DNA of 59,657 nucleotides, filler included, from Pseudomonadota bacterium (GCA_043820105.1; 4 parts of 4 records of this genome joined end to end with filler, not necessarily neighbours in it); one strand, 5' to 3'; shown: positions 325 to 23,674, counted from the whole stretch's first letter. Numbers and translations: made by a program. Notes: generated by a model from the letters alone, not told the origin.

Positions 325-409
325 ATTCAGTATTCAGTATTTGGTATTCAGTATTTGGTTTTGACAAATCCTTACAGTTTACCACTTACAGCTTACCACT
401 TACCACTTA
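325..409 (+). repeat. Two adjacent heptamer arrays: (ATTCAGT/ATTTGGT)x5 at 325-359 and (CTTACCA/CTTACAG)x5.5 at 371-409, ending 3 nt before the SD AAGGAGG of the C25 gene
   Basis: 7-bp periodicity read directly from the sequence. Confidence 0.9.
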
Positions 410-424
410 AACAAGGAGGGACAA

Positions 425-2239
425 ATGAAAAAAACAATATATCTAAGCTTGATTTTTTTACTTACTCTAACAAACTTCATCTATGCAACAGTAATAGAAA
501 AAACATATAGATTTGAAAATTATAGAATCAAGCCTATGGGTTATTTTGATATTATTGAACTTGAAAATACTAAAGTTATTGGAGAAACTGGAAAACCCAG
601 TATTCCATATCACAGCATTGCTTTATTGCTACCACCAACAGAAGCAGCTGTATCAATTGAAATTGAAAGAACAGAGGAAGTAAAAATCCCCTACCCTGTA
701 AATCTTTTTCCAAAGCAATTGAGCATACCCCTTTCATCAGACAAACAAATACATTTTATGTATAATCCCAATCTATATGAATCTGATATTTCTTACCCGG
801 AAAATCCTCTGGGTGAAATTTCAACTCATTTTATGAATGGACATTCAATAGCACTTTCTGTTTTTACTCCACTAAAATATAATCCAAAAACAAAGCAGGC
901 ATCTTATTATAAAAATGTTAAAATAAAAATTATCAGCGAATATACTGAAAAAGCACATGCAGCTCTATACAATTTAAGTTCAAAAGAAAGTGTAATAAAA
1001 AGAATTGAGACCTTTTCCCATAATCCCGAAATGCTTCAGGTTTATCCAACAAACAACGAAACAAAAGAAAATAACTTCGACCTGCTAATTGTAACTCCAT
1101 GGAAGTATGAAGATCAGTTTTTAGAGTTTTCAGAAAACTATGAAGAACTGGGAATAAAAGCTAACATTGTTTCAACTGATTTAATACAAAGAAATGGCCA
1201 GGGTCAAGATTTGGCAGAAAAAATTAGAAATTATATAATAAGCACATATCAAGAATCACAAATTGAATATGTACTGCTTGGGGGCGATGTTGAACATGTA
1301 CCATATAGAGGATTTTATGCAACTGTTCAATCAGATAGCCTGATGAAGGATAATAATATACCAGCAGATATTTACTTTTCAGCACTTGATGGCACATGGA
1401 ATGATGACAATGATAGCCTCTGGGGTGAAAAAAATGAAGACGACCTTCTACCCGAAATTGCAGTTGGCAGATTACCCTTTTCAGACGCAGATGAACTTGA
1501 AAACATACTTCACAAAATATATAGCTATCAATTTAAACCAGTGCCTGGTGAAATTCGAAAACCATTATTTGTGGGAGAGCACCTCTGGGATAACCCGGAA
1601 ACCTGGGGATCAGACTATCTTGAGCTTTTAATTGGATATAAAGATGACAATGGATATAACACCCGGGGAATTCCTGAAGATTTTGAAATAATGAAAATGT
1701 ATGAATCTGAATTTAATTGGTCAAAAAAAGACCTGTTAAAGGCAATCAATTCAGGCACAAGTTTTATCCACCATGTTGGTCATTCCCATTATTATTTTAA
1801 TATGAAATTCTATTTAACAGATATTAATAATTCTAATTTCCAAGATGTTGATGGAGTAAAACACAACTATCCCCTGGTTTATTCACATGGCTGTATAAGT
1901 GGAGCTTTTGATAAAAATGATTGTATCGGTGAAAGAATGTTAACAATTGATAATTTCGCAGTAGCTTATATTGGCAATTCAAGATATGGCTGGTTTAATG
2001 AAGGACAAACAGATGGCCCATCTCAGCATCTGCACAGAGAATTTTTAGATGCGATCTATGGTGAAGGTTTCTTTAATCTAGGAACAGTGCATATGAAATC
2101 AAAAATTGATACAGCACCCTGGGTAAATGCTCCTGGTCAACACGAAGATGGAGCATTAAGATGGTGCTTTTATGACAATAATGTCCTTGGAGATCCCTCG
2201 ATGTTCATCTGGCCAGATGAGCCAGAAAATTTATATTAA
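425..2239 (+). CDS. Secreted C25-family (gingipain-like) cysteine peptidase with propeptide
   Basis: Signal peptide, GKPSIPY propeptide motif, YVLLGGD, VGRLP, catalytic HVGH and HGC motifs, terminal LGDP; SD AAGGAGG. Confidence 0.9.
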   Translation: MKKTIYLSLIFLLTLTNFIYATVIEKTYRFENYRIKPMGYFDIIELENTKVIGETGKPSIPYHSIALLLPPTEAAVSIEIERTEEVKIPYPVNLFPKQLSIPLSSDKQIHFMYNPNLYESDISYPENPLGEISTHFMNGHSIALSVFTPLKYNPKTKQASYYKNVKIKIISEYTEKAHAALYNLSSKESVIKRIETFSHNPEMLQVYPTNNETKENNFDLLIVTPWKYEDQFLEFSENYEELGIKANIVSTDLIQRNGQGQDLAEKIRNYIISTYQESQIEYVLLGGDVEHVPYRGFYATVQSDSLMKDNNIPADIYFSALDGTWNDDNDSLWGEKNEDDLLPEIAVGRLPFSDADELENILHKIYSYQFKPVPGEIRKPLFVGEHLWDNPETWGSDYLELLIGYKDDNGYNTRGIPEDFEIMKMYESEFNWSKKDLLKAINSGTSFIHHVGHSHYYFNMKFYLTDINNSNFQDVDGVKHNYPLVYSHGCISGAFDKNDCIGERMLTIDNFAVAYIGNSRYGWFNEGQTDGPSQHLHREFLDAIYGEGFFNLGTVHMKSKIDTAPWVNAPGQHEDGALRWCFYDNNVLGDPSMFIWPDEPENLY

Positions 2240-2241
2240 AC

Positions 2242-2472
2242 CTATTTCTTGTCTAACATCTTTTTTATTTTAGCCTTTATTTTATCCTTAGTCTTGCCAG
2301 ATAATTTTTCTGAAATATTCTGTTCAATATATTGATCTTCTAAAGATTCAATAAATTTATCTTGAGTATTTGTGCTTGTTACAAAAGAAACTCCTCCCGC
2401 TAAAACTAAACATCCTACAAGAATTATTGAATAGCTTTTTAAAACCTCTTTTATTTTATGTTTTATTTTCAA
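2242..2472 (-). CDS. Small hypothetical single-pass membrane protein
   Basis: 76-aa ORF (TTG start) with one hydrophobic segment, fills an intergenic gap. Confidence 0.5.
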   Translation of the reverse strand: MKIKHKIKEVLKSYSIILVGCLVLAGGVSFVTSTNTQDKFIESLEDQYIEQNISEKLSGKTKDKIKAKIKKMLDKK

Positions 2473-2822
2473 AAAATTATTCTGCCTAAATTTTTCTATT
2501 ACTTTATTATAACAAATTAAAGAAAAAACTCTAATAAAAATTTAAAAAGAGTATTTTACTAATAAACAGCTCATCCCCTTTCAACATATTTACCTTTAAT
2601 GTCTGTTACTTACTAAATAGCAGCCAAAGGATTCTTGACATTTTGCAATAAATTTTATTCAAATAAAAATTGGCTTGAGGCAGAATCCCTTATTGTATGG
2701 AACAAGAACATCTAAAATACTCTTTCTTGAGCATTTCGAACAGTATCGTAAGCTGATACAAAAAAGCAGACACTCTATATTTTTTTTAAATTAATCCGTA
2801 GGGGTTTAATTTAGGGGGTGAC

Positions 2823-4505
2823 ATGGATAAAAATTCCAAAGGTAACAAGAGGTTTATCCTAATCTTGGGTTTCGCACTTTTCTCAATGTTTTTTGGAGCT
2901 GGCAATCTAATTTTTCCACCAAGCCTTGGTCGCATATCTGGAGATATGTATTTTTTAGCCATCCTGGGTTTTATTATAACAGCAGCTGGACTCCCCTTTT
3001 TAGGCATCCTTGCTGTATCACAGGCAGATGGAGGAATCGATAAGATTGCAAGCAAAGTCCATCCCAACTTTGGAAAATTTCTCTTAATAGTAATACTTCT
3101 GATAATAGGTCCAATGTTAGCAATTCCCAGAACTTGTGCAACAACCTATGAACTTGGAGTTATACCTAATGCTCCATGGTTAGGATCATGGACTTTTTCA
3201 GGAATATTTTTCGCAATTGTACTATACTTTTCTTTAAATCCTAAAAAGGTTGTTAAAAGAATTGGTAAAATTCTTACACCTATTTTACTTCTGGCCCTAA
3301 CATCATTAATACTTACTGGAATATTTCTTCCCATTGGATCTCCAGCTGACCTGGGTGTTGGAATAAAGATTTTTGGCACTAGTTTTACAGAAGGCTACCA
3401 AACAATGGACATGCTTGCTGCAACTATATTTGGAATAATTATTTTAAATGAATTGAAAAATAAAAATATTACCGATCGAAAAACACAAATGTCTATGATT
3501 GTTAAAGCTGGAGGCATTGCGATCATTGGACTAGCTGTTATTTATGCAGGATTACTATATCTTGGATCTAGCACCACGTCTATCGCAGGCGATTTTACAA
3601 GAACCTCTTTATTAACCTCAATCGCTACAATGCTTTTAGGTAAAGCAGGAGCAAGCACTCTGGGAATCGCGGTCTCAATGGCCTGTCTTACAACAGCTAT
3701 AGCCTTAACTGTTTGCTGTGCTCAATATTTTAGCAAAATGACAAATAATAAATTAAGTTATAGAAATATTTGTTTCATAGTCTCTGGAATTTCTTTATTT
3801 ATCTCAAATGCAGGTGTTGAATTAATCATTAAATTCGCGGTTCCTCCACTAGTTACACTTTATCCAGTTGTTATGGTATTAGTTATTATGACAATATTTA
3901 ATAAACACCTAAAAGACAGACCTTTATGGATAGCAACAACATTGGGTGCTTTTATTTTTGGACTTTTAGAAACTGCTATGGCCCTTGGAATTAACAAGCA
4001 AGTTCTAACTCAAGTATATTCGGCTCTACCTTTATCTAATTATGGTTTAGGTTGGATTCTTCCATGTGTTTTCTTTGGAATAATTGGTTCTACCTTCAAT
4101 GTATACAGAAAGAAAAATGTACTGGTAATCCACTCCTTACAAAATGATCTTGAAGCGACCCTTTTCAATGATACAAAGGAAATATTTAAAATCAATATTA
4201 GTCCATTAATTTTTAATGATTCAAGTCAAGCAAATGACACGATTCAATACCTATATTTAAAAAGTACTTTGATAAAAAAACTAAAAAAATTGGAAGTTGA
4301 CTTTAAGTCAATAGATTCAATAACAATAGATCATAGAATCACAGCTGACTCACATCCCTGGGTGCATCAATTCGCTGATACCTTCTTAGAAAAAGTTGAC
4401 AAAGAAACTCTCGGACTAAATAAAGAAATCATTTCAATGAATGTTATTTTGGATATTGCCGAAGAAATTAAAGTAAACACTTATGTCTTAAATACATCTC
4501 TCTAA
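2823..4505 (+). CDS. brnQ: Branched-chain amino acid:cation symporter BrnQ with ~130-aa extra C-terminal soluble domain
   Basis: GFALFSMFFGAGNLIFPP, GPMLAIPRT, EGYQTMD, ACLTTA motifs; ~12 TM segments. Confidence 0.93.
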   Translation: MDKNSKGNKRFILILGFALFSMFFGAGNLIFPPSLGRISGDMYFLAILGFIITAAGLPFLGILAVSQADGGIDKIASKVHPNFGKFLLIVILLIIGPMLAIPRTCATTYELGVIPNAPWLGSWTFSGIFFAIVLYFSLNPKKVVKRIGKILTPILLLALTSLILTGIFLPIGSPADLGVGIKIFGTSFTEGYQTMDMLAATIFGIIILNELKNKNITDRKTQMSMIVKAGGIAIIGLAVIYAGLLYLGSSTTSIAGDFTRTSLLTSIATMLLGKAGASTLGIAVSMACLTTAIALTVCCAQYFSKMTNNKLSYRNICFIVSGISLFISNAGVELIIKFAVPPLVTLYPVVMVLVIMTIFNKHLKDRPLWIATTLGAFIFGLLETAMALGINKQVLTQVYSALPLSNYGLGWILPCVFFGIIGSTFNVYRKKNVLVIHSLQNDLEATLFNDTKEIFKINISPLIFNDSSQANDTIQYLYLKSTLIKKLKKLEVDFKSIDSITIDHRITADSHPWVHQFADTFLEKVDKETLGLNKEIISMNVILDIAEEIKVNTYVLNTSL

Positions 4506-4514
4506 TCCCCTCAT

Positions 4515-4535
4515 CGTTACCGTTACCGTTACCGT
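4515..4535 (+). repeat. Hexamer array (CGTTAC)x3.5 between convergent stop codons
   Basis: Direct reading. Confidence 0.75.
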
Positions 4536-4538
4536 CCC

Positions 4539-5561
4539 CTATATAACAAAATCCCCAGCTTTCATAATCATTTTGCCATCAATTTCAATTGTAGTTTTTT
4601 GAATTACCATATCAAGATGAGCAGCACTTGTCCAATCTGAACCAGTTTTTTCAGGATATCCGTGCCCCATTGCAATATGGACACCAGGAAATTTTTCGTC
4701 TTGGAGTAAATTTCCAACAAGTCTTTCTAGCCCAAGGTTTGTACCAATAGCAAATTCTCCAATCCTATTAGCATTTTCATCAATTTTCATATATTCAAGT
4801 ATATCATTTTCTATATCCTTATTGTTTTCACAAATTACTGATATAACTCTTCCATCTTTAATTTCACAAACAACAGGAGATGCACTTATCTCACCATATT
4901 TTGCATTCATAAAATCGCCTAAAACACCGTCAATAACAACTTTACCGTTAATATCCCTTGCACAGGTAAAAACCTCTCCATCAGGAAGATTTGACCAGTT
5001 ATCAGCTTGAATATTTCCATCACAATTTACCCATTTCCAATTTGGGTCTAGTGTTACGGTAAAATTGCTACCAGCTTCTGTTGTAACTTTTGCCTCTTTT
5101 GCTCCTGTAACAATTTTCATAATATTTGCATTTGTTTCTTTTATTTTAGCATAGTCAGCTGCCATTCCCATTTCCATTAACATGTCATTTACATTTGGCA
5201 TATGTCCATGTCTAATAGTATTTGCTTCATCAATAATTGTAAGCATAGGCACTCTAAAGGTTTGTAGTTCTCCTTTTTTGCTCATTGCTGCATAAACAGA
5301 AACATCAGAAGTCTTTAAATATTCGCCTATTTCCTCAGGAAATACCAAAGCATTTGTGCCATCTTCAGGCCTTTGACCATAGTCTTCCATTTTAAAAAGT
5401 TTTACTTTATCAGTAATCTTTAAAAACTGTTCTTTAATGGCTTCAGCAATATGCAGAGTTTTTTCATCAGTAGTAATACATACCTTTTCACTGGGTTGTG
5501 TTCTAAGACAATTTACAACTACCTGGTAAGCGCCATAATCTAGTGTTTCTTTACTAATCAT
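4539..5561 (-). CDS. M29-like metallo-aminopeptidase (AmpS/aminopeptidase T type)
   Basis: NLPDGEVF, GEFAIGTN, DEK..GVHIAMG, HLD motifs. Confidence 0.88.
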   Translation of the reverse strand: MISKETLDYGAYQVVVNCLRTQPSEKVCITTDEKTLHIAEAIKEQFLKITDKVKLFKMEDYGQRPEDGTNALVFPEEIGEYLKTSDVSVYAAMSKKGELQTFRVPMLTIIDEANTIRHGHMPNVNDMLMEMGMAADYAKIKETNANIMKIVTGAKEAKVTTEAGSNFTVTLDPNWKWVNCDGNIQADNWSNLPDGEVFTCARDINGKVVIDGVLGDFMNAKYGEISASPVVCEIKDGRVISVICENNKDIENDILEYMKIDENANRIGEFAIGTNLGLERLVGNLLQDEKFPGVHIAMGHGYPEKTGSDWTSAAHLDMVIQKTTIEIDGKMIMKAGDFVI

Positions 5562-5578
5562 AGATTTCTCCTTGCTAA

Positions 5579-5668
5579 TAAGTGGTAAGTGATAAGTGGT
5601 AAGTGGTAAGTAAATTACAGTGTTTATTTCTTACGACTTACGACTTACGACTTACGACTTACGACTTA
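5579..5668. repeat. Inverted pair of heptamer arrays: (TAAGTGG/A)x4.7 - 18 nt - (CTTACGA)x5.5
   Basis: 5579-5611 and 5630-5668; arms complementary at 6 of 7 positions per unit. Confidence 0.92.
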
Positions 5669-5674
5669 TGTCTA

Positions 5675-5986
5675 CTAACTATCTTTGTTAATAATAACCG
5701 GATACTCCTTAAGTTTCTTCCTTGTAGGTTTTATTACCTTAAAATTATGCTCTTTTTGTTTATCATTGACCTCTTCTATTAATGCTAAAGACTGAAGAGG
5801 AATCATAATAAACTTACTAGCTTCAAATCTTTTTTTTGATTCATTGCCAGATGGAGATATAACAATTGCTGATTGGTCTTCAAAATGTAAATCTTTTATT
5901 GTTACAAAATATGGATGGCTCATATCTAAGGTTTTAGCCATTACTTCATAATTTTTAGTCTCTAATTTAAAGGATACTCGATACAT
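5675..5986 (-). CDS. Hypothetical protein, DUF1820-like
   Basis: MYRVSF...YEVMAK...FVTIKDLHF...IPLQSLALIEEV pattern resembles DUF1820. Confidence 0.65.
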   Translation of the reverse strand: MYRVSFKLETKNYEVMAKTLDMSHPYFVTIKDLHFEDQSAIVISPSGNESKKRFEASKFIMIPLQSLALIEEVNDKQKEHNFKVIKPTRKKLKEYPVIINKDS

Positions 5987-6110
5987 GCTGTGTCCTAATT
6001 TTTATGTAAAAACAAGTTTCTAGAAAGAAAGCAGGTCTTTGTCAATAAATTTAGTAAACTAGTAAAGACTTAACATAAAGATCTTTACACATGTTAATAT
6101 ATTTACCATA

Positions 6111-6122
6111 TTTAACATAAAA
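6111..6122 (+). promoter_or_regulatory. Conserved upstream motif TTTAACATAAAA (-97..-86 of sRNA copy 1); candidate enhancer site
   Basis: Identical sequence and spacing upstream of all three sRNA copies. Confidence 0.7.
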
Positions 6123-6181
6123 AATCGAAATATCGCCACGTAACATTCTAATTTAATTACGTTAACCAAAAGCTGGCGAAA

Positions 6182-6197
6182 TGGCACCAAGTCTGCA
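6182..6197 (+). promoter_or_regulatory. Sigma54 (-24/-12) promoter TGGCACCAAGTCTGCA
   Basis: GG-N10-GC with TGGCAC; predicted +1 at 6208. Confidence 0.8.
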
Positions 6198-6207
6198 ATA
6201 GTATCTT

Positions 6208-6276
6208 AATAGTTTCATAATATGCTCCCCTAAAGAAAACTACAGGGTGTCATCGAGTTCGATGACACCCTTTTTT
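6208..6276 (+). ncRNA. Candidate sigma54-dependent small RNA, copy 1 (~69 nt)
   Basis: Promoter + 22-nt core GTTTCATAATATGCTCCCCTAA (6212-6233) shared with two other loci + terminator. Confidence 0.75.
6245..6276 (+). terminator. Rho-independent terminator GGGTGTCATCG-agtt-CGATGACACCC-T6
   Basis: Perfect 11-bp stem followed by T6. Confidence 0.9.
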
Positions 6277-6285
6277 AGTCCCAAA

Positions 6286-6353
6286 ATTAATTATTAATTA
6301 TTATTTGTTAATTATTGATTATTTTTTATTGATTATTGATTATTGATTATTGA
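6286..6353. repeat. ATTAATT/ATTGATT heptamer array
   Basis: 7-bp periodic AT-rich array related to those at 12293, 14909, 16247, 18728, 25388 and 54587. Confidence 0.8.
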
Positions 6354-6363
6354 AATTTAAGAC

Positions 6364-7869
6364 TTAATTAGCAACATTCACATAAACATAATTCGACTCA
6401 TAAGTAGCAAGCTCTCCAACTTTCCCAATCCCAAACAACTCATATTCACCATCTGCATAATAATTTGTCCTCCAGCCTATCAGTGTTTGAGGACAAGGAT
6501 CTTTTACTTCTATTATTTTTTCACCATCAGGCCCTTTAATATAAAAGTCCATTGAGGACAATGGAACTGTAATGTCTTGACAGGAAAATTCAATGTATAC
6601 TTTTTCTTTTAAGGTATCACCACTACTTGGAGAATTTATAGTGAGTCTTAAATCCTGTTTATTATTTAAGACATAAAAACGCTTAAATTCTGAATAATAA
6701 GAAAATTCCCCATCAGAAACAACGATTGTTGCATCATACATTCCATCAGGAACATTTAGTGTATCAATTTCAAAAATAAGCTCACTAGGATCTATATTAG
6801 CAGAAAAAACTTCACTATTAGTCTGGTGAACATATAGTTTAAAAATCGCACTTGTTATATTGGGATGTGTGTTTTCTGCAAATAAAGTAACTTTTCCAGC
6901 AAATGCATTTTCCTCAGATAATTGAGGCAGACTTACAAAGCCATTGAATTTTGGAACATCGAAGTTATAAGCAGATTTTCCAACCCCAGATGCATCATAC
7001 CAGTCAATTTTAAAATAACCCTGGTCACCCCAATCTTCACCCCAACTATTTCTAACTATCCAGGCTTTATTTTCATCTTCCCAGCCAACAATCACAATTG
7101 CGTGGCCTCCCAGCGCTTCACCTGTAACATGCTTATATACACCACTTTTATATGCTAAAAAATCTTCGTACACTGTCATTCCAGTTAATAGTGGTCCATG
7201 AGCAAGGGCTGCCTTAACTTTCTGCACATCATATGACCAGGAATTCACAGAGGTATAGTCTATAATTCCAAGAGTCCTATCATCCATATTATAGCAACTT
7301 AAAGCGCTGCACTCAAAATCCGCACCCATTTTTCCACTTTCATACGGAACACAAGCCTCATCACAAGTTCCTGTTCTTTTTAAATGAGAAGCACCTCCAG
7401 ATAAATACATGCCTTGATTACAAGCACCACCTCCACAGTGAAAAAGTTGCTGCTCAGAAAGATCAAAATCATAATCAGGATATAAATTGCTAATCCTCAG
7501 CTGGGCTTCAAATGCACCTAAAGTTGCAAAAGCAACACAGCTTCCACATCTTCCCTGATCACGAATTGGGCTCATCCAATTAGTACCATCAACATCTCTC
7601 CAATCAAACTCTGCAGATCTACTCAGATAATTTTCATATGGTGAAAAAGTATAAATCTCAAAAGCAAGCATAGATTCATCTTGGATTAAACCCATATGTG
7701 GTTTTTCGCCTGAATCTAAATATTTGCTCATAGAAGTTATGCCTGCTTGCCAATTGCCACCCTTGGCACTAATAGCTTCATTAATTTTGTCAGTGGACAA
7801 GTTAGTAGCAATTAAGTGAGTTGTTAGTAGAAAAGAAATGACCAGGAAAGACAGAGTGATTTTTTTCAT
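6364..7869 (-). CDS. Secreted papain-family (C1A) cysteine peptidase with C-terminal Ig-like extension
   Basis: Signal peptide, DWR, QGRCGSCVAFA, LSEQQL, GGHAIVIVGW, RNSWG. Confidence 0.93.
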   Translation of the reverse strand: MKKITLSFLVISFLLTTHLIATNLSTDKINEAISAKGGNWQAGITSMSKYLDSGEKPHMGLIQDESMLAFEIYTFSPYENYLSRSAEFDWRDVDGTNWMSPIRDQGRCGSCVAFATLGAFEAQLRISNLYPDYDFDLSEQQLFHCGGGACNQGMYLSGGASHLKRTGTCDEACVPYESGKMGADFECSALSCYNMDDRTLGIIDYTSVNSWSYDVQKVKAALAHGPLLTGMTVYEDFLAYKSGVYKHVTGEALGGHAIVIVGWEDENKAWIVRNSWGEDWGDQGYFKIDWYDASGVGKSAYNFDVPKFNGFVSLPQLSEENAFAGKVTLFAENTHPNITSAIFKLYVHQTNSEVFSANIDPSELIFEIDTLNVPDGMYDATIVVSDGEFSYYSEFKRFYVLNNKQDLRLTINSPSSGDTLKEKVYIEFSCQDITVPLSSMDFYIKGPDGEKIIEVKDPCPQTLIGWRTNYYADGEYELFGIGKVGELATYESNYVYVNVAN

Positions 7870-7885
7870 TTTTCCCCCTCGTTAA

Positions 7886-7998
7886 TAAGTGGTAAGTGAT
7901 AAGTGGTAAGTGGTAAGTGGTAAGAAAAATTGTATAAAACATATAGAAAAAACTATATGATCTAAAACTTACGACTTACGACTTACAACTTACGACTT
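7886..7998. repeat. Inverted pair of heptamer arrays: (TAAGTGG/A)x5.5 - 43 nt - (CTTACGA)x4.4
   Basis: 7886-7924 and 7968-7998; same layout as 5579-5668. Confidence 0.92.
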
Positions 7999-8084
7999 GT
8001 TTATGAGGGGGTTATATTTTTCGGTGAGGGGTAAATTGAGTAAATTTTATATAAAATTAATAAGAGAAAAGCAAAGGAAAAAGT

Positions 8085-9089
8085 TTATTCAATACAACTA
8101 GTAGTTATTTCACCACAATTAATATTATTCTTATTTGAATCCCAGCAGATTTCTGAATCGTCAGTTCTTAAAAACATTCCTTCACCAGACTCAATATCTT
8201 CATCAATTTCCCAATCAGTATCCTCGCTCGTATTATGAACACTCAATTCAAAACATGTTCCATCAGCATGTTTTCTATAATTTATATAGCTTCCATAATT
8301 ATCATTGTCCTCATCTATAACATCAAACCTCAAGTTTCTATCATTTTCATCTGTAATTGAAAAAGCAATGCTAATAAATTCTTCTCCTGTTTCAGGTGAA
8401 TATAAAGTACAAGTTCCTGTACCTCCCTGATCAACATTACCAAGATAATCAAAGGAATCTGCTGAAAGTTCATATTTAACAAAATCAGTACCTGATTGAA
8501 TTGCTGTTCCCACACATTCTGAACAGGTTATATTTAAGGTTAAAGTTGTATCTCCATCATCATCCTTTTCAGCGGTAAAAACAATGTCAGGATTATATGT
8601 TGTTCCATTGTGTGTTGTTGTCAGAGAAAAAGATAAAACAGCCTTTGTTACGTTTTCACTGGAATCAACTGTAAGTTCAAAATCAATATCTTCTGCATTT
8701 CCTGTAGCAAGTTGAGTTAATATTGCCTGAAAAACCAATCTATGAAGAATTGTTGTAGTAGTGGCGATAGCAGTTACAGTTAAATATGCCACTGCAGCCA
8801 AAGGTCGATTTGTTCGTAAATTCTTATAAAGACCACTCTCTGAAATTGATTGGTCAATCTCCATAGTTGAAATTCCTGGAATTGCAAAGGTTCCAATTGC
8901 TTCTTCAATGGAGGCAACTTCTGTAGTAACATCGTCACCAAGCCCATCTCCTGAAGTGGAGCCATCACCAGAGTCATCCCCAGCATCATCACAAGAACCT
9001 GCAGAATCGTCACCTGTTAAACAAGCTGGAAAAATTGAAAGTGAAATTATAATTAGGATAGCTAACGATATATTAAGTAAATTCTTCAT
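8085..9089 (-). CDS. Hypothetical acidic lipoprotein
   Basis: Lipobox-like FPAC after hydrophobic leader, Gly/Asp/Ser linker, SD GGAGGA. Confidence 0.75.
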   Translation of the reverse strand: MKNLLNISLAILIIISLSIFPACLTGDDSAGSCDDAGDDSGDGSTSGDGLGDDVTTEVASIEEAIGTFAIPGISTMEIDQSISESGLYKNLRTNRPLAAVAYLTVTAIATTTTILHRLVFQAILTQLATGNAEDIDFELTVDSSENVTKAVLSFSLTTTHNGTTYNPDIVFTAEKDDDGDTTLTLNITCSECVGTAIQSGTDFVKYELSADSFDYLGNVDQGGTGTCTLYSPETGEEFISIAFSITDENDRNLRFDVIDEDNDNYGSYINYRKHADGTCFELSVHNTSEDTDWEIDEDIESGEGMFLRTDDSEICWDSNKNNINCGEITTSCIE

Positions 9090-9102
9090 ATCTTCCTCCA
9101 GT

Positions 9103-9135
9103 TAAGTGGTAAGTGTTAAGTGGTAAGCTGTAAGT
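9103..9135 (-). repeat. CTTACCA-type heptamer array (4.7 units) ending 3 nt before the SD of the lipoprotein gene
   Basis: Plus strand TAAGTGG TAAGTGT TAAGTGG TAAGCTG TAAGT. Confidence 0.9.
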
Positions 9136-9230
9136 ATCAAAAACACAAATAATATGCAACAATTTTGTAAACCACTAAATTCAAAATCCCACCAGCAACC
9201 AGCAAGCACCCACTACTTCACCTAACTGAT

Positions 9231-9399
9231 CACCAGTGCACCAAAGCACCAGAAAGATAATGAAACCAAATACTAAATACAAATCTTACCACTTACCACT
9301 TACCACTTACCACTTACCACTTACCACTTATATCCTAGCACCAGTGCGCCAGAGCACCAGAAAGATAATGAAACCAAATACTGAATACAAATCTTACCA
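9231..9399 (+). repeat. 108-bp higher-order tandem repeat containing (CTTACCA)x6.5; second copy cut by contig end
   Basis: 9231-9291 vs 9339-9399 differ at 3 of 61 positions. Confidence 0.9.
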
Positions 9400-9499
9400 N
9401 NNNNNNNNNNNNNNNNNNNNNNNNNNNNNNNNNNNNNNNNNNNTTAATTAATTAANNNNNNNNNNNNNNNNNNNNNNNNNNNNNNNNNNNNNNNNNNNN
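9400..9499. other. Artificial assembly linker (N44-TTAATTAATTAA-N44)
   Basis: Ns plus six-frame stop spacer, identical three times. Confidence 0.98.
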
Positions 9500-10794: not shown

Positions 10795-10815
10795 AACAAT
10801 CTCCTTTAATAAAAT

Positions 10816-12292: not shown

Positions 12293-12331
12293 ATTAATTA
12301 TTATTTATTAATTATTGATTATTATTTATTT
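12293..12331. repeat. ATTAATT/ATTGATT array just upstream of tgt start
   Basis: Direct reading. Confidence 0.75.
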
Positions 12332-12459: not shown

Positions 12460-13536
12460 TTATAGGATTAGCATACAATCCCCATAAGAAAAAAGCCGAT
12501 ATTTTTCACGAATTGCTTCTTCATAAGCATTTTGCATGAGCTTTTGAGATGCAAATGCTGAGACCATGATAAAAAGGGAGGATTTGGGTTGGTGAAAGTT
12601 TGTTAAAAGACCACCTACTGCCTTAAATTCATATCCTGGATAAATGTACATTTCTGTCTTATTCCAAGAATCTAGTTTTGCTTCTTTATTAGTAAAAAAG
12701 CTTTCAATAGTTCTAACTGATGTGGTACCTATTGCTATTATTTTATTTCTATTTTCTTTGGCAATTTTGATAGCATCATATGTGGGTGTTGAAATAAAAT
12801 ATTCCTCATAATGCATTTTGTGTTCTAATATATTTTCACTTCTAACTGGCAAAAATGTTCCAATACCAACATTTAATGTAACAGGATGCATTTTAATGTT
12901 TTTTTCTTTTAATATATTAAGAATATTTTCAGTGAAATGCAGGCCAGCAGTTGGAGCAGCGCAAGCAAGACCTTTTTGAGCATAGACAGTTTGATATCTT
13001 GAGCCATCAAGATCTTTATCATAATCGCGTTTCAAATATGGTGGGATTGGCATTTGACCAAAATAATCTATCCAATTTAAATGATATTCTATAAAATCTT
13101 TATTTATTGAGTTTTCATAAGTGGAATTGCTGTGATCAAAATATATTTGATAGGACATATTTACTTTTTCTTTTATTACAATCACTGTTGTATTATCTTC
13201 AAGTATTAAGTTTTCATCTTTTCGTAAACTTCTTGAAGAATTTACCATTGCCTCCCAAAGCCTATCATTTTGATTTATTTGCTTTAATAAAAGGATTTCA
13301 ACTTTTCCACCTGTTTGTCTTTTTGCAAAAAAACGAACCTTTTCAACCCTCACATCATTATAAACAATTATATCATTTTCATTAATATAGTTTGGAAATT
13401 GTTTAAACGTATTGTGTGAAAAAGACTGGTTTTCTCTATCAACAATAAGCATTTTAGAATCATCACGGTTTTTATTAGGATATTTAGCGATAAGCTCTTC
13501 TGGAAACATATAATTATAATTTTTAATATTATTCAT
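12460..13536 (-). CDS. queA: S-adenosylmethionine:tRNA ribosyltransferase-isomerase
   Basis: PIPPY, YQTVYA, AAPTAGLHF, GTTSVR, TNFHQP, YRLFSYGD. Confidence 0.97.
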   Translation of the reverse strand: MNNIKNYNYMFPEELIAKYPNKNRDDSKMLIVDRENQSFSHNTFKQFPNYINENDIIVYNDVRVEKVRFFAKRQTGGKVEILLLKQINQNDRLWEAMVNSSRSLRKDENLILEDNTTVIVIKEKVNMSYQIYFDHSNSTYENSINKDFIEYHLNWIDYFGQMPIPPYLKRDYDKDLDGSRYQTVYAQKGLACAAPTAGLHFTENILNILKEKNIKMHPVTLNVGIGTFLPVRSENILEHKMHYEEYFISTPTYDAIKIAKENRNKIIAIGTTSVRTIESFFTNKEAKLDSWNKTEMYIYPGYEFKAVGGLLTNFHQPKSSLFIMVSAFASQKLMQNAYEEAIREKYRLFSYGDCMLIL

Positions 13537-13583
13537 TGTTCTCTTGTTCCCTTGCGCTCTTGTTCTCTTATTCCCTTGTTCTC
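13536..13583 (-). repeat. Six-unit octamer array (GAGAACAA/GGGAACAA/GAGCGCAA) forming the whole spacer before the queA ATG
   Basis: Runs from the upstream TAG into the ATG. Confidence 0.92.
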
Positions 13584-14893: not shown

Positions 14894-14908
14894 TTTCTTC
14901 CTAAACCA

Positions 14909-14946
14909 TTAATTATTAATTATTATTTATTGATTATTAATTATTC
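14909..14946. repeat. 38-bp AT-rich heptamer-based element downstream of serS
   Basis: 36/38 identical to 16247-16284. Confidence 0.82.
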
Positions 14947-14949
14947 TCA

Positions 14950-16221
14950 TTATTTAGGCTCTATCACCTCTATCCCCATCATATAAGGCCTCAAAACCTC
15001 AGGCACAACAACAGAGCCATCTTTTTGCTGATTCATTTCCAAAATTGGTATCAATATTCTTGGAGAAGCAATAGCTGTATTATTTAAGGTATGGACGAAT
15101 CTTATTTTTCCTTCTTTATCTCTATATCTTATGTTAAGCCGTCTTGCCTGGAACTCGTGTAATGTTGAGCATGAGTGAGTTTCACAATAAAAGTTCCTTG
15201 AAGGCATCCATGTTTCAATTTCATGCTTCATAACTTGCCCAAGTCCGATTTCTCCCGTACAAGCTAAAGCAACTCTATATGGAAGTTTTAAGGCCTGCAT
15301 TATTTCTTCTGCATTGTTTAAAATAAAATTATGTTCTTTTTCTGATCCCTCAATACAGTTTTTAGAAATTACGACTTGTTCAACTTTTGTAAATTGATGA
15401 ACCCTGTAAAAACCTTTTGTGTCTTTTCCATAACTTCCGGCTTCTCTTCTAAAACATGGCGATAATCCAACAAATCTTAAAGGAAGTTCGTCTTCTGATA
15501 ATATTTCATTGAGTCGGGTTGAAACCAAAGAAACTTCACTAGTCCCAACGAGATTTAATTCATCTTTCTCCATTCTATAAGTATCTTCTACACCTAATGG
15601 AAAAAAGCCTGTTCCAAACATTGCAATATCTTTTACCAAAACAGGAACATGATGATAAGAAAAGCCCTTTTTAATTATATGCTCAACAACATATCTGCAA
15701 ATTGCTTGTTCTAAAAGCGCTCCTTCATTTTTTAATAAATATGATCTTCCCCCTGCAAACTTAGAAGCTCTTTCAAAGTCAACAATATCAAGCGAATGCG
15801 CAAGCTCTATATGATCTTTTAGTTCAAAATCAAACTCTGGAATTTCACCGACTTTTCGCAGTTCAACATTATCTTCATCAGAAACTCCTTCAGGTACAGA
15901 GGGATGAGGTATGCCAGGAACCATTAACATTATATCATTTATTTGATTTTCATATTCTTTTAATTCGGGCTCTAGCCCTTCAAGACTTTGTTTTAATTCT
16001 TTACCTTGGCTTATAGCTTCTTGCCTTTTTTCAGGAGAAAGTGTGCCAATGCTTTTTGCAATAATATTTCTTTTATTTCTAATCTCTTCAACTTCACCAA
16101 GTAATTTTCTTCTTTTTTCATCAATATTAATTAGCTTATCAACATCTACTTTAATTCTTTTTTTCCTAGCAGCTTCTTTAACAATTTCAACATTTCCCCT
16201 AATAAAATTAATATCAAGCAT
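14950..16221 (-). CDS. serS: Seryl-tRNA synthetase
   Basis: MLDINFIR, GTSEV, CFRREAGS, RVHQFTKVEQ, HTLNNT. Confidence 0.97.
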   Translation of the reverse strand: MLDINFIRGNVEIVKEAARKKRIKVDVDKLINIDEKRRKLLGEVEEIRNKRNIIAKSIGTLSPEKRQEAISQGKELKQSLEGLEPELKEYENQINDIMLMVPGIPHPSVPEGVSDEDNVELRKVGEIPEFDFELKDHIELAHSLDIVDFERASKFAGGRSYLLKNEGALLEQAICRYVVEHIIKKGFSYHHVPVLVKDIAMFGTGFFPLGVEDTYRMEKDELNLVGTSEVSLVSTRLNEILSEDELPLRFVGLSPCFRREAGSYGKDTKGFYRVHQFTKVEQVVISKNCIEGSEKEHNFILNNAEEIMQALKLPYRVALACTGEIGLGQVMKHEIETWMPSRNFYCETHSCSTLHEFQARRLNIRYRDKEGKIRFVHTLNNTAIASPRILIPILEMNQQKDGSVVVPEVLRPYMMGIEVIEPK

Positions 16222-16246
16222 TTTCAGGCCTTCCTAATTTATTTTG

Positions 16247-16284
16247 TTAATTATTAATTATTATTTATTAGTTATTAATTATTC
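16247..16284. repeat. 38-bp AT-rich heptamer-based element upstream of serS, overlapping the gyrA stop
   Basis: Direct repeat of 14909-14946. Confidence 0.82.
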
Positions 16285-18708
16285 ACACTCTTCATCTTCT
16301 TTAGCTATAGCAATATCTGTAACCAGCTCATTCTTATTAACACTAATCAACTTAACCCCTTGAGTATTTCTTCCTATTGTTGAAATATCTTGTACTCGCA
16401 TCTTAATAAGCTTTCCGCCATTTGTAATGATCATAATTCTATCTTTATCAAAAACAGAGGCTGTTCCAACGACATGTCCATTTTTTTCTGTAACTTTAAT
16501 TGTAAATATTCCTGTTCCGCCTCTGGATTGAATTCTATAATGTTGAAGCAGAGTGCACTTGCCAAAACCCTTTTCTGTAACAGTCAAAATCTTTGAATCA
16601 GCATCAAGAATTTCCATTCCAACTACTTTATCATCCTTTTTAAGATTAATACCTTTTACACCAGCAGCTGTGCGACCCATTGGCCTAACACCAGCTTCTT
16701 TAAACCTAATAGACATTCCATTTCTGGTTGTAATGAAAATATCTTGCTTTCCATTTGTGAGATCAGCTGACATTAGTTGATCATCATCTTTAATATTAAG
16801 AGCAATAATACCGCCAGATCTCGGATTTGAAAAACTCATGAGATCTGTTTTCTTTATTATTCCTTTTTTGGTGAGCATTACAATATAACTACCTTCTGTG
16901 AATTCTCTAACTGTTAATATTGCTGAAATTATTTCACCTTCAGAAAGATTTAAAAGATTAACAATTGGCTTTCCTTTGGCTATTCTTGCTCCTTCTGGAA
17001 TATTGTGAACTTTTAACCAATAAAGTTTTCCTCTATTTGTAATAGCCAAAATATATGAATGCATGGATGCAATGAATAGATTTTTCAAGAAGTCTTCATC
17101 CTTGGTTGTCATACCTGTCACGCCTTTTCCGCCCCTTTTTTGACTCTTAAAGGAAGATATGCTATTTCTTTTTATATATCCAGTATGAGAAATTGTAACA
17201 ACCATTTCCTCATCTTGAATTAGGTCCTCTAAGCTCATATCTTTAATTTCAGATGTTATTTCAGTTCTTCGATCGTCATTATATAATTTTTTTATAGCTA
17301 TAAGCTCTTCTTTTATTATATTAAATAAGAGTTTTTCATCTGCTAAAATTTCTTTATATTCTTTTATTTTCTGAATTACTTCTTCATATTCAGTAACTAG
17401 TTTATCTTGTTCAAGACCTGTGAGTCTATGTAATCTCATATCTAAGATTGCTTGAGATTGTTTATCTGATAAATCAAAACGTTTTATTAATTTTTCTTTT
17501 GCAACTTTTGCATCTGCTGATTTTTTTATAATTTCGATAACTTCATCAATATTTTCAATGGCTATTTTTAAACCTTCTAATATATGAAGCCTTGCTTCTG
17601 CTTTTTTAAGTTCAAAAATTGTTCGTCTAGTTACAATCTCTTTTCTATGTTCAACAAAATAGACTAAAACTTCTTTTAAATTTAACACCCTTGGCATTTT
17701 GTCCACAATAGCTAACATGATAATACCGAAAGTAGATTCAAGAGCTGTATGTTTAAAAAGTTGATTTAAAATAACTGTTGAGATAATATCTTTTTTAAGC
17801 TCAATAACCATTCTCATTCCGGTTCTATCAGACTCATCTCTAATATCTGAAATACCTTCAATCTTTTTATCTTTAGCAAGCTCTGCTATTTTTTCAACTA
17901 ATCTGGCTTTATTTACTTGATAAGGAAGCTCTGTAATAACAATTCTTTCCCTATCATTTATTCCCATTGGCTCAACGTTTGCCTTTCCACGCATTCTTAC
18001 AATACCGCGACCTGTTTTATAGGCACTAACTATTCCATCTTTACCGCAAATATAACCGCCTGTTGGAAAATCAGGGCCAGGAACTATTTTAATTAAATCT
18101 TTTATTTCACAATCTGCATTATCAATTAAATAAATAATAGCATCAACAATTTCACCAAGATTATGAGGAGGAATATTTGTTGCCATACCTACTGCTATTC
18201 CTGAAGATCCATTTATTAACAGATTTGGAAGCTTAGATGGCAAAACAGAAGGTTCAAAAAGTGATTCATCATAGTTTGGTGTAAAATCAACTGTTTCTTT
18301 GTCAAGATCTTCCAGCATTTCTGACGCAATTCTATCCAGGCGAACTTCTGTATACCTCATAGCAGCAGGTGAATCGCCATCAACTGAGCCAAAATTACCC
18401 TGGCCATCTACAAGTGGATATCTTAAAGAAAAATCCTGAGCCATTCTAACAATAGTATCATAAACAGCTGTATCTCCATGGGGGTGATACTTACCAATTA
18501 CATCACCAACTACACGTGCGGATTTTTTATAGGATTTATTCCAGTAATTATTCATTTCGCTCATAGCGTACATAACACGCCTATGAACAGGTTTAAAGCC
18601 ATCTCTGACATCTGGTAATGCTCGACCTACAATAACACTCATTGCATAGCTCATGTATGAGGTCTTCATTTCATCTTCAATATTAACTCTTATGAGGTTT
18701 GTTTCCAT
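16279..18708 (-). CDS. gyrA: DNA gyrase subunit A
   Basis: YHPHGD, AAMRYTE, GyrA-box QKRGGKG. Confidence 0.98.
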
Positions 18709-18727
18709 CTATTTTTAATCCTTTAAA

Positions 18728-18796
18728 AATAATTGAGAATTGATTATTAATTATTGATTATTTTAATCCTCAATAATCAATGGTTAATGGTCAATT
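18728..18796. repeat. Inverted pair of ATTGATT / TCAATAA-type heptamer arrays between gyrB and gyrA
   Basis: 18728-18762 and 18770-18796 are in opposite orientation. Confidence 0.75.
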
Positions 18797-18809
18797 TAAC
18801 TCTAAAATT

Positions 18810-21227
<2,418 letters not shown>

Positions 21228-21280
21228 TTACTTATCCTTAATTGAAAAAATTGACCCATATTTTACACTAAAAAACTATC

Positions 21281-22369
21281 TTATGTCACCTGTAAAAAGG
21301 CGAATTTAGAAGAAAATTTATTTTTTTTATATGTGTCAATTTCAGTGGTTGTACATAAAACTTGAATATCTAAATCAGCTAAAATTGAAGATAACCTATC
21401 TCTTTTTATAATATCAAGCTCAGCTCCTAAATCATCCCATAAAAATATGGGTTTATTGTTAAAATTGTTTCTCAAAATATATAATTCTGCTAGTTTTAAT
21501 AAGACAGCTAGCTCCTTTGTTTCACCCTGTGAAGTAAAAAACCTGGCTTCCTTATTATTTCTAATAAAAATTATATCATCTCTATGAGGACCAATTAAAG
21601 ATTTTTGTCTAATTACTTCTTTTTCCTTAAGCTTATCAAAAAGCAGCTTAAAAGCTTCTTTATTTTCCCAATAATTGAAATCAAATTCCTTGTTTTCATA
21701 ATAGTTCACATTTATTTTGAGATCATCATAATATTTTAATAAAATTTCATTTAGATTAAGGTTTAATAATTCAACATATTTAAGTCGTTTTTCTAATAAT
21801 TTTGAAGAATATGTAAAAAGCTGTTCATTCCAAATATAAATTTCATCAAAAGAACATGATCTTTGATAAATTCTTATTAAAACAGCATTTCTATTTTTAA
21901 CAATTTTTTTATATATTAGAAGATCTTTTAAATAAATATTATCTAATCTGGAAAGAGCTGAGTCTATAAAATTTCTTCTTTCTTGCGGAGATCCTTTAAT
22001 TGTCCAAAAGTCATTTGGAGCAGATAAAACAATGGGAGTATTTTTTATAGAATTTGTTATGCTTCTTTCAATATTACCATTTATCAGAAATTTCTTTTGT
22101 TTTCCATTAAATATAGAATTGTATTGGGTATCGCCAAATGAATGATTTGCATGAACTTCTATATCAAAACCATCCCTACCTTCTTTTATTAAATGATCTT
22201 TATTTTTTGTTCTAAATGAGGTTTGATGAAAATTATAATAAACAGCTTCAATAATATTTGTTTTTCCAATTCCATTTAAACCCCAAAAAAAGTTAACACC
22301 TTTTTGCAGATTTAATGAAAGGTTTTCATGATTTCTGAAATTTTTTATATTTATAGTTTTTATAATCAA
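21281..22369 (-). CDS. recF: DNA replication/repair protein RecF
   Basis: GLNGIGKTN, GPHRDD, SQGE; between dnaN and gyrB. Confidence 0.93.
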   Translation of the reverse strand: MIIKTINIKNFRNHENLSLNLQKGVNFFWGLNGIGKTNIIEAVYYNFHQTSFRTKNKDHLIKEGRDGFDIEVHANHSFGDTQYNSIFNGKQKKFLINGNIERSITNSIKNTPIVLSAPNDFWTIKGSPQERRNFIDSALSRLDNIYLKDLLIYKKIVKNRNAVLIRIYQRSCSFDEIYIWNEQLFTYSSKLLEKRLKYVELLNLNLNEILLKYYDDLKINVNYYENKEFDFNYWENKEAFKLLFDKLKEKEVIRQKSLIGPHRDDIIFIRNNKEARFFTSQGETKELAVLLKLAELYILRNNFNNKPIFLWDDLGAELDIIKRDRLSSILADLDIQVLCTTTEIDTYKKNKFSSKFAFLQVT

Positions 22370-22400
22370 CGTTTAGTCTCATTTTAAGAATGATTTATTA

Positions 22401-22435
22401 CTGTACGCCGTACTCTGTACGCAGTACGCTGTACC
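22401..22435. repeat. Heptamer array (CTGTACG-like)x5 with palindromic GTAC core between dnaN and recF
   Basis: CTGTACG CCGTACT CTGTACG CAGTACG CTGTACC. Confidence 0.88.
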
Positions 22436-22453
22436 AAAGGATTTATTAAACTC

Positions 22454-23584
22454 TTATAGTCTCACTGGCATAATTACATTCAAATATTCTTCATTATCAT
22501 TAAACTGAAGCAAAACAGGGCTAACTTCGTCACTCAAGAAAATAGATACATTTTCATCAACTATATTTGTTAGTACATCCAGAAAGAATTTGGAGTTAAA
22601 ACCAAGATTCATTTCAACATCTCCATTTACATTTTGAATTTCTTCTTTTGATTCACCTATTTCTGGGTGTCTGTAAGAAAGCTCAATAGCGCCTCTTTTA
22701 AAATTAAAATTAATACATTTAATTTTATCTTGAGTATGCGATGAAATAGAAGAAACTCTTTTTAAAGTATTAAAAAGATCTTCTCTTTTTAAATCAAATT
22801 TTCTATCTGTTTTTTGTGGAATTATTCTTCTATAGTCTGGAAATTTCCCATCAATAACTCTCATTACTAAAAAAGTATCATCTTTTGCAAAAACAGCCTG
22901 ATTTTTCTTTAATTGAAAATATATTTTATCTCCACCTTCATCAAGAAGCTTTTTAAGTTCTAAAAGACCTTTTTTAGGCAAAATAACTCCGCCTTTTGCC
23001 TTTATATCAAAAGCTTTATTCATTTCTTTTTCAATTAATGCTAGCCTATGGCCATCTGTTGCTACCATTCTTAACATATTTTTTGAAGTATCATCCATTT
23101 TTTCAAGATAAACACCATTTAGATTATATCTTGTTTCTTCTTGAGAAGTGGCATAAATAGTTTTTGTAATCATTTCTTTAAAAGAATCTAAATCAAATTC
23201 CAAAAGATCCTCTTTATTATTTTCTTCAATTTTAGGAAATTCAGTAACAGGCATGGTAACAAGTTTAAAAACTGATTTTCTACTTGAAACAATAACTCTA
23301 TTATCAGGATCTAATAAAATACTAACCTTTCCTTCCGGAAGCTCTCTGACAATATCACATAAATGTCTTGAAGAAACTAAAACAGCTCCTTCTTCTTGAA
23401 TTTCAGCATCATACATTGTTTGAAAAACAATATCTAAATCAGTGGCTTTAAGTTCTATTTTACCTTTACCTTTTGTGGCTAAATATACATTTGTTAATAC
23501 AGGTAAGGTTCCTTTTTTATCTGTAATTGATTGTATCTTTGATAATCCATTTAAAAAAGAATTTCTTTCAATTGAAAACTTCAT
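22454..23584 (-). CDS. dnaN: DNA polymerase III beta sliding clamp
   Basis: ATDL, VATDGHRLA, FPDY, C-terminal IMPVRL. Confidence 0.97.
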   Translation of the reverse strand: MKFSIERNSFLNGLSKIQSITDKKGTLPVLTNVYLATKGKGKIELKATDLDIVFQTMYDAEIQEEGAVLVSSRHLCDIVRELPEGKVSILLDPDNRVIVSSRKSVFKLVTMPVTEFPKIEENNKEDLLEFDLDSFKEMITKTIYATSQEETRYNLNGVYLEKMDDTSKNMLRMVATDGHRLALIEKEMNKAFDIKAKGGVILPKKGLLELKKLLDEGGDKIYFQLKKNQAVFAKDDTFLVMRVIDGKFPDYRRIIPQKTDRKFDLKREDLFNTLKRVSSISSHTQDKIKCINFNFKRGAIELSYRHPEIGESKEEIQNVNGDVEMNLGFNSKFFLDVLTNIVDENVSIFLSDEVSPVLLQFNDNEEYLNVIMPVRL

Positions 23585-23600
23585 TTTAAAGCTCCTAATA

Positions 23601-23674
23601 CAAGTAGTAAGCTGTAAGTGATAAGTTATAAGTAAAAAACTTAAAACCTAATACATAAAGCTTAAAACTTTAAA
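23601..23674. repeat. Degenerate inverted heptamer pair upstream of dnaN: (TAAGNNN)x5 then (CTTAAAA-like)x5
   Basis: 23601-23635 and 23640-23674; first array ends 4 nt from SD AGGAG. Confidence 0.75.

Follow-up and report, generated by a model that had tools for sequence, protein, structure and literature searches.

Results

Heptamer arrays at five gene starts

The DNA studied here (the window: the whole stretch of 59,657 nt, 32% G+C, with six masked N blocks) comes from a Pseudomonadota bacterium (GCA_043820105.1). The element in question is a tandem heptamer array that lies directly upstream of five of its genes, just before the Shine-Dalgarno sequence (SD). The coding strand of all five arrays reads CTTANNN. 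Arrays of this G-poor reading are called C-type (C-arm) below, and those of the complementary, purine/G-rich reading (TNGTAAG) are called G-type (G-arm). The five arrays had been singled out by a first-pass annotation made from the sequence alone. All of them were found where it had placed them, and the gap from array end to SD core was measured as 3-5 nt. The features are:

371..409, + strand: C-type arm, CTTACAG/TTTACCA/CTTACCA units, 3-4 nt before the SD AGGAGG; C25 peptidase (PF01364), ATG at 425
5576/5579..5611, - strand: C-type arm, CTTACCA in mRNA sense, 5 nt before the SD AAGGAG; M29 aminopeptidase, start 5561
7883/7886..7924, - strand: C-type arm, 5 nt before the SD GAGGGGG; C1A peptidase (C1), start 7869
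9101/9103..9135, - strand: C-type arm, 3 nt before the SD GGAGG; 334-aa gene, start 9089, no family match in Pfam
23601..23635, - strand: degenerate C-type arm, CTTATAA/CTTATCA/CTTACAG/CTTACTA in mRNA sense, 4 nt before the SD AGGAG
start 23584, - strand: dnaN (Pfam DNA_pol3_beta), downstream of the 23601..23635 arm

The identity noted earlier between 5576-5611 and 7883-7918, variant unit included, was exact over 36 nt and extended to neither side. Similarity of the M29 and C1 leaders goes on through the SD (91% over 47 nt).

Repeats were scanned by period over the window. Fifteen arrays were found at period 7, versus 0-1 at each of periods 3-6 and 8-13; the signal at period 14 was a re-detection of the period-7 arrays. 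Period-7 sequence makes up 660 of the 6,822 intergenic nt and 57 of the 52,872 nt in open reading frames (ORFs), and 50 of these 57 nt fall in a spurious ORF overlying an array. The unit families are CTTACCA/CTTACGA, ATTNATT, ATTCAGT/ACTGAAT, CTGTACG and GTTGCTG. The period-7 arrays and the pattern of the five arrays are far beyond chance. The excess of 7-nt units, the intergenic preference and the several unit families bear out the initial comparison with the short tandemly repeated repetitive (STRR) sequences. Rfam, searched at gathering thresholds over the entire window, gave 0 matches. A promoter scan of 1-9399 gave 38 sites, against 42.0 +/- 6.3 in shuffles.

Partner arms and predicted hairpins

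The arrays had also been described as always in the same orientation. This is correct for the SD-proximal array (5/5 CTTANNN), and the orientation is non-random, all five being C-type in sense before the SD. It is not correct for the leaders, where arrays of the same family lie further upstream in the opposite orientation. Such arrays were located 18, 38 and 150 nt upstream of the C-arms of the M29, C1 and 334-aa genes, respectively. The upstream features are:

5630..5668, - strand: partner G-type arm, TCGTAAG x5.6 in mRNA sense, 6 nt after the DUF1820 gene stop
5675-5986, - strand: DUF1820 gene, upstream of the M29 cassette
7963..7998, - strand: partner G-type arm, TCGTAAG/TTGTAAG in mRNA sense, 38-nt loop to the C1 C-arm
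9285..9330, - strand: partner G-type arm, TGGTAAG x6.6 in mRNA sense, 150 nt from the C-arm, 91-96% complementary
23636..23680, - strand: degenerate partner array, AAGTTTT-type in mRNA sense, abutting the dnaN C-arm; period 7, 73% matches
320..359, + strand: array of a different unit, ATTCAGT/ATTTGGT, G>C, upstream of the C25 C-arm 371-409

On the + strand, 5630-5668 and 7963-7998 read CTTACGA, i.e. TCGTAAG on the mRNA strand. Three clear convergent (inverted) pairs and one degenerate pair were thus counted in the window. A further opposite-orientation array starts at 9394 in the leader of the 334-aa gene and enters a masked stretch. Three masked stretches (9400-9499, 23727-23826 and 39231-39330) are built alike, each with 44 N, 12 readable nt and another 44 N. 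Since a CTTACCA array precedes the first and the dnaN cassette lies downstream of the second, partner arms or other elements may be hidden in them.

The spacer between the DUF1820 gene and the M29 gene (113 nt) is occupied entirely by the cassette. In mRNA sense it consists of the DUF1820 stop, 6 nt, (TAAGTCG)5, an 18-nt loop, (CTTACCA)4-5, 5 nt and the SD.

The leaders were folded as RNA in mRNA sense and each was compared with 200 shuffles:

M29 leader: -32.3 kcal/mol, z -5.29, 0/200 shuffles as good
C1 leader: -36.8 kcal/mol, z -5.67, 0/200 shuffles as good
334-aa-gene leader: -80.3 kcal/mol, z -5.43, 0/200 shuffles as good
dnaN leader: -21.7 kcal/mol, z -2.10, 4/200 shuffles as good
C25 leader: -14.5 kcal/mol, z +0.46, 131/200 shuffles as good

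The arrays of the M29, C1 and 334-aa genes are clearly each the 3' arm of a long predicted hairpin. The stop codon and the SD are left unpaired by the predicted stems of these three leaders.

Handedness of inverted pairs

A palindromic cassette is the same on both strands, and its sole free property is which arm, G-rich or C-rich, comes first. All pairs of the window had the G-arm first: 5576/5630, 7883/7963, 9101/9285, 18738/18772, 59463/59524 and a pair of 8-nt period around queA. Metagenome contigs were then scanned for (CTTACCA)3 on either strand. At least 119 loci were obtained, with 33-68% G+C, and the counts that follow concern the 119 loci listed. These contained 92 C-type and 82 G-type arrays. 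Neighbour arrays at most 400 nt apart were G-then-C in 31 cases, C-then-G in 0, C-C in 7 and G-G in 6. When the second members of 12 homologous locus pairs were removed, the ratio was 25 G-first versus 0 (p 6e-8). Inverted pairs of other heptamer units, in the listed loci and the window together, were G-first in 10 of 12 cases.

Because of this handedness, the adjoining arm in sense is the C-arm where a gene starts beside a cassette and the G-arm where a gene ends beside one, whichever strand the gene is on. The same orientation of the five arrays therefore follows from the handedness of the cassette, and no link to translation is needed. The earlier proposal that the arrays are tied to translation-initiation regions as such is not upheld: each array makes up half of an inverted cassette with two arms, which spans the spacer between the upstream stop codon and the SD and has its partner arm, oppositely oriented, beside that stop; 31/31 listed pairs are G-first. 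No translation-specific element is called for.

Gene ends next to the metagenome arrays

ORFs of at least 100 aa were called in the metagenome loci by a longest-ORF rule with the arrays masked. Masking was needed because unmasked ORFs ran through the stop-free C-arms. The rule scored was C-type in sense before starts and G-type in sense after stops:

Paired arrays: starts C:G in sense 27:2; stops G:C 20:1; rule kept 47/50
Unpaired arrays, any distance: starts C:G 34:35; stops G:C 28:31; rule kept 62/128
Unpaired arrays, ≤30 nt from a gene end: starts C:G 13:10; stops G:C 11:4; rule kept 24/38 (p 0.14)
Unpaired arrays, ≤30 nt, loci <55% G+C: starts C:G 7:1; stops G:C 6:2; rule kept 13/16 (p 0.02)

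A bias of orientation and distance relative to ribosome-binding sites, anticipated by the first-pass annotation, was thus absent for unpaired arrays overall, and those within 30 nt of gene ends leaned to the rule. The two ≤30-nt rows agree with the distance dependence given in the available part of Rehm et al. (2015; PMC4692102).

Seven of the 31 listed pairs had ORFs within 300 nt on both sides, and all seven lay between co-directional genes. In the typical layout a TAG stop was fused to (TGGTAAG)n, 0-16 nt of loop separated this arm from (CTTACCA)n, and the ATG followed after 0-10 nt. The C-arm was 0-4 nt from the ATG in many listed loci. Where flanks were 78-88% identical, cassettes were kept at the same site (locus pairs L087/L127, L131/L140 and L134/L159).

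Probable copying and replacement of cassettes

The M29 and C1 cassettes have a common order of variant units and are asymmetric in the same way, with CCA-type units in one arm and CGA-type units in the arm opposite. This indicates copying, not independent slippage, and the common origin proposed earlier for these two arrays is supported by their identical variant units and 36 identical nt. A 61-nt direct repeat occurs in two copies with 95% identity (9231-9291 and 9339-9399, + strand); a CTTACCA array ends each copy, and the second enters masked N.

In metagenome locus L111 (3399-3861), the cassette has TGGTAAG-type arms and a gene of 119 aa in its loop that matches PF05635 (E 2.5e-26). This family is the 23S rRNA intervening sequence (IVS) protein, an Avd-like four-helix bundle. 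The gene is co-directional with its two neighbours. Upstream, the G-arm overlaps the TAG; downstream, the C-arm adjoins the called start. It is the only such cassette among the 31 listed metagenome pairs. Locus L062 (3416-3559) has flanks 96% identical to those of L111, but an unrelated 100-nt spacer with a plain hairpin stands there. Comparison of the two loci indicates that whole cassettes can be gained or replaced. In a phmmer search against 6,772 ORF fragments from the loci and the window, the L111 protein matched only itself.

Co-occurring reverse transcriptase or Avd-like genes, suggested by the first reading of the window, were not found in it: scanning of its 35 ORFs with Pfam gave no reverse transcriptase and no Avd/S23p-like (PF05635) protein, which leaves the single gene in L111. 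The window cassette loops (18, 38 and 150 nt) contained no ORF. In a limited literature search, none of the titles or abstracts listed tied the PF05635 gene to heptamer arrays.

Relatives for an empty-site comparison were sought by a GyrB-based contig scan, which gave 52 loci; the best full-length matches had 55-56% identity (61-78% in partial matches only) and none was usable. Four DNA metagenome runs (three from groundwater, one from a biofilm) contain parts of 4539-9399 in short contigs at ~2x; no RNA run with this DNA was listed. One contig (7889-8064), which covers part of the C1 C-arm, the loop and the G-arm, showed no differences. No copy-number variant or empty site was readable in the four runs, where cover is only ~2x and fragmentary. 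Peaks of metagenome depth at the arrays come from other organisms' arrays.

Other arrays and features of the window

The queA gene (12460-13536, - strand) is flanked by a 32-nt inverted repeat (12399-12430/13536-13567) with 8-nt-period units, 91% complementary and 1,105 nt apart. In mRNA sense its purine-rich arm runs from the upstream TAG to the queA ATG and its pyrimidine arm lies past the queA stop.

The second heptamer family is ATTNATT on the + strand, AATNAAT in mRNA sense. Its arrays are at:

6283-6353
12293-12330
14900-14945
16244-16283
18729-18762
54587-54624

They fill the spacer that follows the C1 peptidase stop and those that precede the starts of tgt, the 13583 gene, serS, gyrA and the 53998 gene, and are always A-rich in sense. 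The genes flanked by them are all on the - strand, so that directions of transcription and replication are indistinguishable. A 12-bp-stem GC-rich hairpin at 6244-6271, with T-runs on both strands and bidirectional terminator-like in form, lies between the DUF1820 gene and the array following the C1 peptidase stop; Rfam gave nothing in this 377-nt spacer (5987-6363).

A third family forms an inverted pair upstream of a 1,169-aa gene (55936-59445, - strand): (AGTATTC)4 at 59463-59493 is followed by a perfect (ACTGAAT)19 at 59521-59657 that runs off the window end. The dnaN-recF spacer holds a CTGTACG/CAGTACG array (22401-22434, period 7 and 14) with both G and C and no clear polarity. A single GTTGCTG array (53966-53988) between convergent genes is G-rich in sense past the + stop and C-rich past the - stop, and is a natural exception for unpaired arrays.

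An operon for an Rnf-type complex, with a class III cytochrome c and NuoF/formate-dehydrogenase-like subunits, occupies 27028-38774. Its spacers are tiny and array-free; arrays are thus absent wherever spacers are shorter than ~40 nt.

Discussion

A probable bipartite cassette in the spacers

The five CTTANNN arrays are probably the gene-proximal, G-poor arms of bipartite heptamer-repeat cassettes of the STRR or long heptanucleotide simple sequence repeat (SSR) class. In mRNA sense such a cassette would consist of an upstream stop, a purine/G-rich (TNGTAAG)n arm, a loop, a complementary (CTTACNA)n arm, 3-5 nt, the SD and the start codon. Cassettes would arise and spread through copying plus slippage, and would fill the spacer up to limits set by selection, the stop codon and the SD. 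Neither G nor any AUG, GUG or UUG occurs in the C-arm, which would thus be a harmless leader beside an SD; this may be why it is tolerated there. The cassette would be co-transcribed with the flanking genes, and its arms may fold into a partly mismatched stem of 30-40 bp with its base just outside the stop codon and the SD. This stem could be an RNase III substrate or an exonuclease barrier, by which the two cistrons would be separated or stabilised. RNase III is suggested because of two studied parallels, the heptamer hairpin of hmw1A (PMC12721329) and the terminal stems of IVSs (PMC4990558), as described in the available parts of these sources.

Several points weigh against this account. That the cassette is co-transcribed, folds in vivo and is cut by RNase III is inference. 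The M29 and C1 stems have one C-C mismatch per 7-bp unit. In the C25 leader, 320-359 is not complementary to 371-409 and no hairpin was predicted; for dnaN only a weak one was predicted (z -2.1). These two of the five leaders fit only as heterologous or decayed cassettes. The queA pair breaks the rule of G-poor arms before starts, yet keeps the G-first order, with a housekeeping gene as its loop. Some polarity attaches to single arrays too, and pair handedness is not the whole story. Lastly, the longest-ORF rule used for the metagenome loci is crude.

Alternatives to the cassette

Plain slippage microsatellites would arise anywhere and be purged where harmful, so that the survivors would look oriented. 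The units themselves are in keeping with such purging. No frame of (CTTACCA)n contains a stop, ATG, GTG or TTG. (TGGTAAG)n, by contrast, has a TAA in each of its three frames, and it also contains GTG; G-type units in sense thus bring GUG starts, SD-like purine runs and TAA stops, and C-type units bring none. Arrays are also almost absent from ORFs, their copy number and units vary between orthologous metagenome loci, and no regulatory role was found by Rehm et al. (2015; PMC4692102), as far as the available part of that paper goes. What independent slippage does not explain is the G-first order of 31/31 listed pairs with 0-16-nt loops, the arms staying complementary, the identical order of variant units in two cassettes 2.3 kb apart (M29 and C1), and the presence of a whole cassette in L111 with none in L062 despite 96% identity. 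As the full explanation, slippage is unlikely.

A dedicated mRNA-leader element, one of the two readings of the first-pass annotation, was also considered, in which single-stranded, G-free CUUACCA by the SD would bind a protein or ribosomal protein S1, or set spacing, and so tune initiation. In all five cases the array, read in sense, stops 3-5 nt short of the SD, and arrays of another G-poor unit, AATNAAT in sense, lie ahead of the SD in tgt, the 13583 gene, serS and gyrA. Among unpaired arrays within 30 nt of starts in the listed loci, 13/23 are C-type, and 7/8 at <55% G+C. A translational role has been proposed for the TAACTGA sets of 'Maribeggiatoa' (MacGregor, 2015; PMC4679880): in the part of that paper available, most of 169 sets face a start codon, many of them stopping 1 nt short of it, and 15 sets stop 2-25 bp ahead of an SD. 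On the other side, the opposite orientation is as frequent in the listed loci (82 G-type versus 92 C-type) and abuts stop codons, and unpaired arrays by starts are 34 C-type versus 35 G-type. The genes served are unrelated (three peptidases, dnaN and one unknown), the array decays freely at dnaN and C25, and in three leaders it is predicted to be paired, not single-stranded. A leader element of this kind is doubtful.

The cassettes could also be scars of a polar repeat-writing or hairpin-inserting process, as opposed to symmetric slippage, and this we regard as very unlikely. On each side of the cassette the G-rich strand runs 5' to 3' from the gene toward the centre (31/31 listed pairs), which is the arrangement of a head-to-head telomere fusion. 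In one variant, both 3' ends at an intergenic break would receive G-strand heptamers before being joined. In the other, a mobile hairpin element with heptamer termini would insert itself in the spacer from stop to start codon; its autonomous form would be the L111 cassette with the PF05635/Avd-like gene, and the ORF-less window cassettes would be miniature derivatives.

Phase-variation switches, in which leader heptamer copy number alters expression of secreted or surface proteins as for (ATCTTTC)n upstream of Haemophilus influenzae hmw1A, are scarcely credible: four of the five genes encode peptidases or a putative lipoprotein and the hmw1A tract is a heptamer SSR in a 5'-untranslated-region (5'-UTR) hairpin whose length sets expression (PMC12721329, available part), but dnaN is a housekeeping gene, as are gyrA, serS and tgt with other heptamer arrays in their leaders, and Rehm et al. 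(2015; PMC4692102) argue against phase variation for the class in the part of their text available.

Comparison with known repeats

The bipartite cassette has several published counterparts. The closest is that of Rehm et al. (2015; PMC4692102), the available part of which describes the units GGGAATC in Xanthomonas and GGGGA(C/T)T in Nostoc PCC 7120. There, G-rich heptamers take the antisense strand in the 50 bp upstream of ORFs and the sense strand in the 50 bp past stops, 70 and 75 convergent pairs were counted in two Xanthomonas genomes, and repeats are under-represented between divergent genes and lie mostly between co-directional ones; no function was found. The repeats described here resemble them in period 7, intergenic and dispersed location, the same strand rule and convergent pairs (PMC4692102, in the part available). 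As to the strand rule, the 5/5 SD-side arrays of the window are C-type, a G-arm lies 6 nt past the DUF1820 stop, and paired arrays of the listed loci follow it in 47/50 cases. They differ in having no G-tract, in their host (a 32% G+C uncultured groundwater bacterium) and in stopping 3-5 nt short of a strong SD. G-tracts for a G-quadruplex (G4) were not seen in the TGGTAAG unit, which has at most GG. TGGTAAG/CTTACCA cannot form G-quadruplexes, and the strand rule therefore cannot depend on G4.

TAACTGA heptamers occur in marine Beggiatoaceae, cyanobacteria and Bacteroidetes (MacGregor, 2015; PMC4679880, available part). Like the arrays described here, these are one-orientation heptamers directly upstream of starts or 2-25 bp before the SD of unrelated genes; forward orientation directly upstream of start or SD is found here with gaps of 3-5 nt. 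Unlike the cassettes, TAACTGA sets are nearly all direct repeats (one indirect among 170) and are reported not to fold, in the part of the source that could be consulted (PMC4679880). The TAACTGA unit itself was not found in the families of the window, which carries CTTACCA/CTTACGA; the nearest window unit, ACTGAAT (59521-59657), is no rotation of TAACTGA.

In the hmw1A 5'-UTR of H. influenzae, the (ATCTTTC)n hairpin is processed by RNase III (PMC12721329). As in hmw1A, a leader heptamer SSR would form here the arm of a long hairpin with a G-rich partner, predicted in three of the five leaders. The handedness of hmw1A is opposite, with the pyrimidine arm first and the G-rich arm second, and it is a single phase-variable locus versus many loci, housekeeping genes included, here. 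To our knowledge, hmw1A is the sole experimentally dissected case of how such a structure acts. The IVSs of 23S rRNA with an S23p/PF05635 ORF (Coxiella, Leptospira) have terminal inverted repeats that form a stem of ~28 bp, which RNase III cuts mid-stem (PMC4990558, available part). The cassettes share with them inverted terminal arms and a long stem (predicted, in the window), and share the PF05635 gene in the loop only in metagenome locus L111. Window cassettes, unlike IVSs, sit between protein genes and not in rRNA, and have no loop ORF; the part of the source available does not speak of heptamer arrays in IVS stems (PMC4990558).

Two further repeat classes should be compared, and neither is identical to the cassettes. 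The STRR heptamers reportedly described by Mazel and co-workers in 1990 are said to form several tandem families across intergenic regions of heterocystous cyanobacteria; the host here is not a cyanobacterium and the units are different. REP, BIME and REPIN sequences are short intergenic hairpin repeats, often inverted pairs between co-directional genes, copied around the genome. Unlike tandem heptamers, a REP is a unique palindromic unit that a RAYT transposase recognises; no RAYT gene was seen in the window.

Significance

The strand rule and convergent pairs are already published for other units (PMC4692102), as are start-proximal same-sense heptamers (PMC4679880), to judge from the available parts of both papers. 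What is new here is modest: the non-G4 unit TGGTAAG/CTTACCA, the many unrelated metagenome contigs that carry it, and the strict handedness. With this unit, found in contigs of 33-68% G+C, a non-G4 sequence joins a class whose explanation, in the available part of Rehm et al. (2015; PMC4692102), rests on G4. The constant orientation beside ribosome-binding sites needs no translation mechanism, and a tempting false lead is thereby removed. The finding is a new unit and a new host for a known, still unexplained repeat class. Taken together, the handedness, the stop-to-start fit and the occasional Avd-like cargo make the question of why bacteria so commonly carry heptamer repeats open to concrete tests, a general point that is in part already in print.

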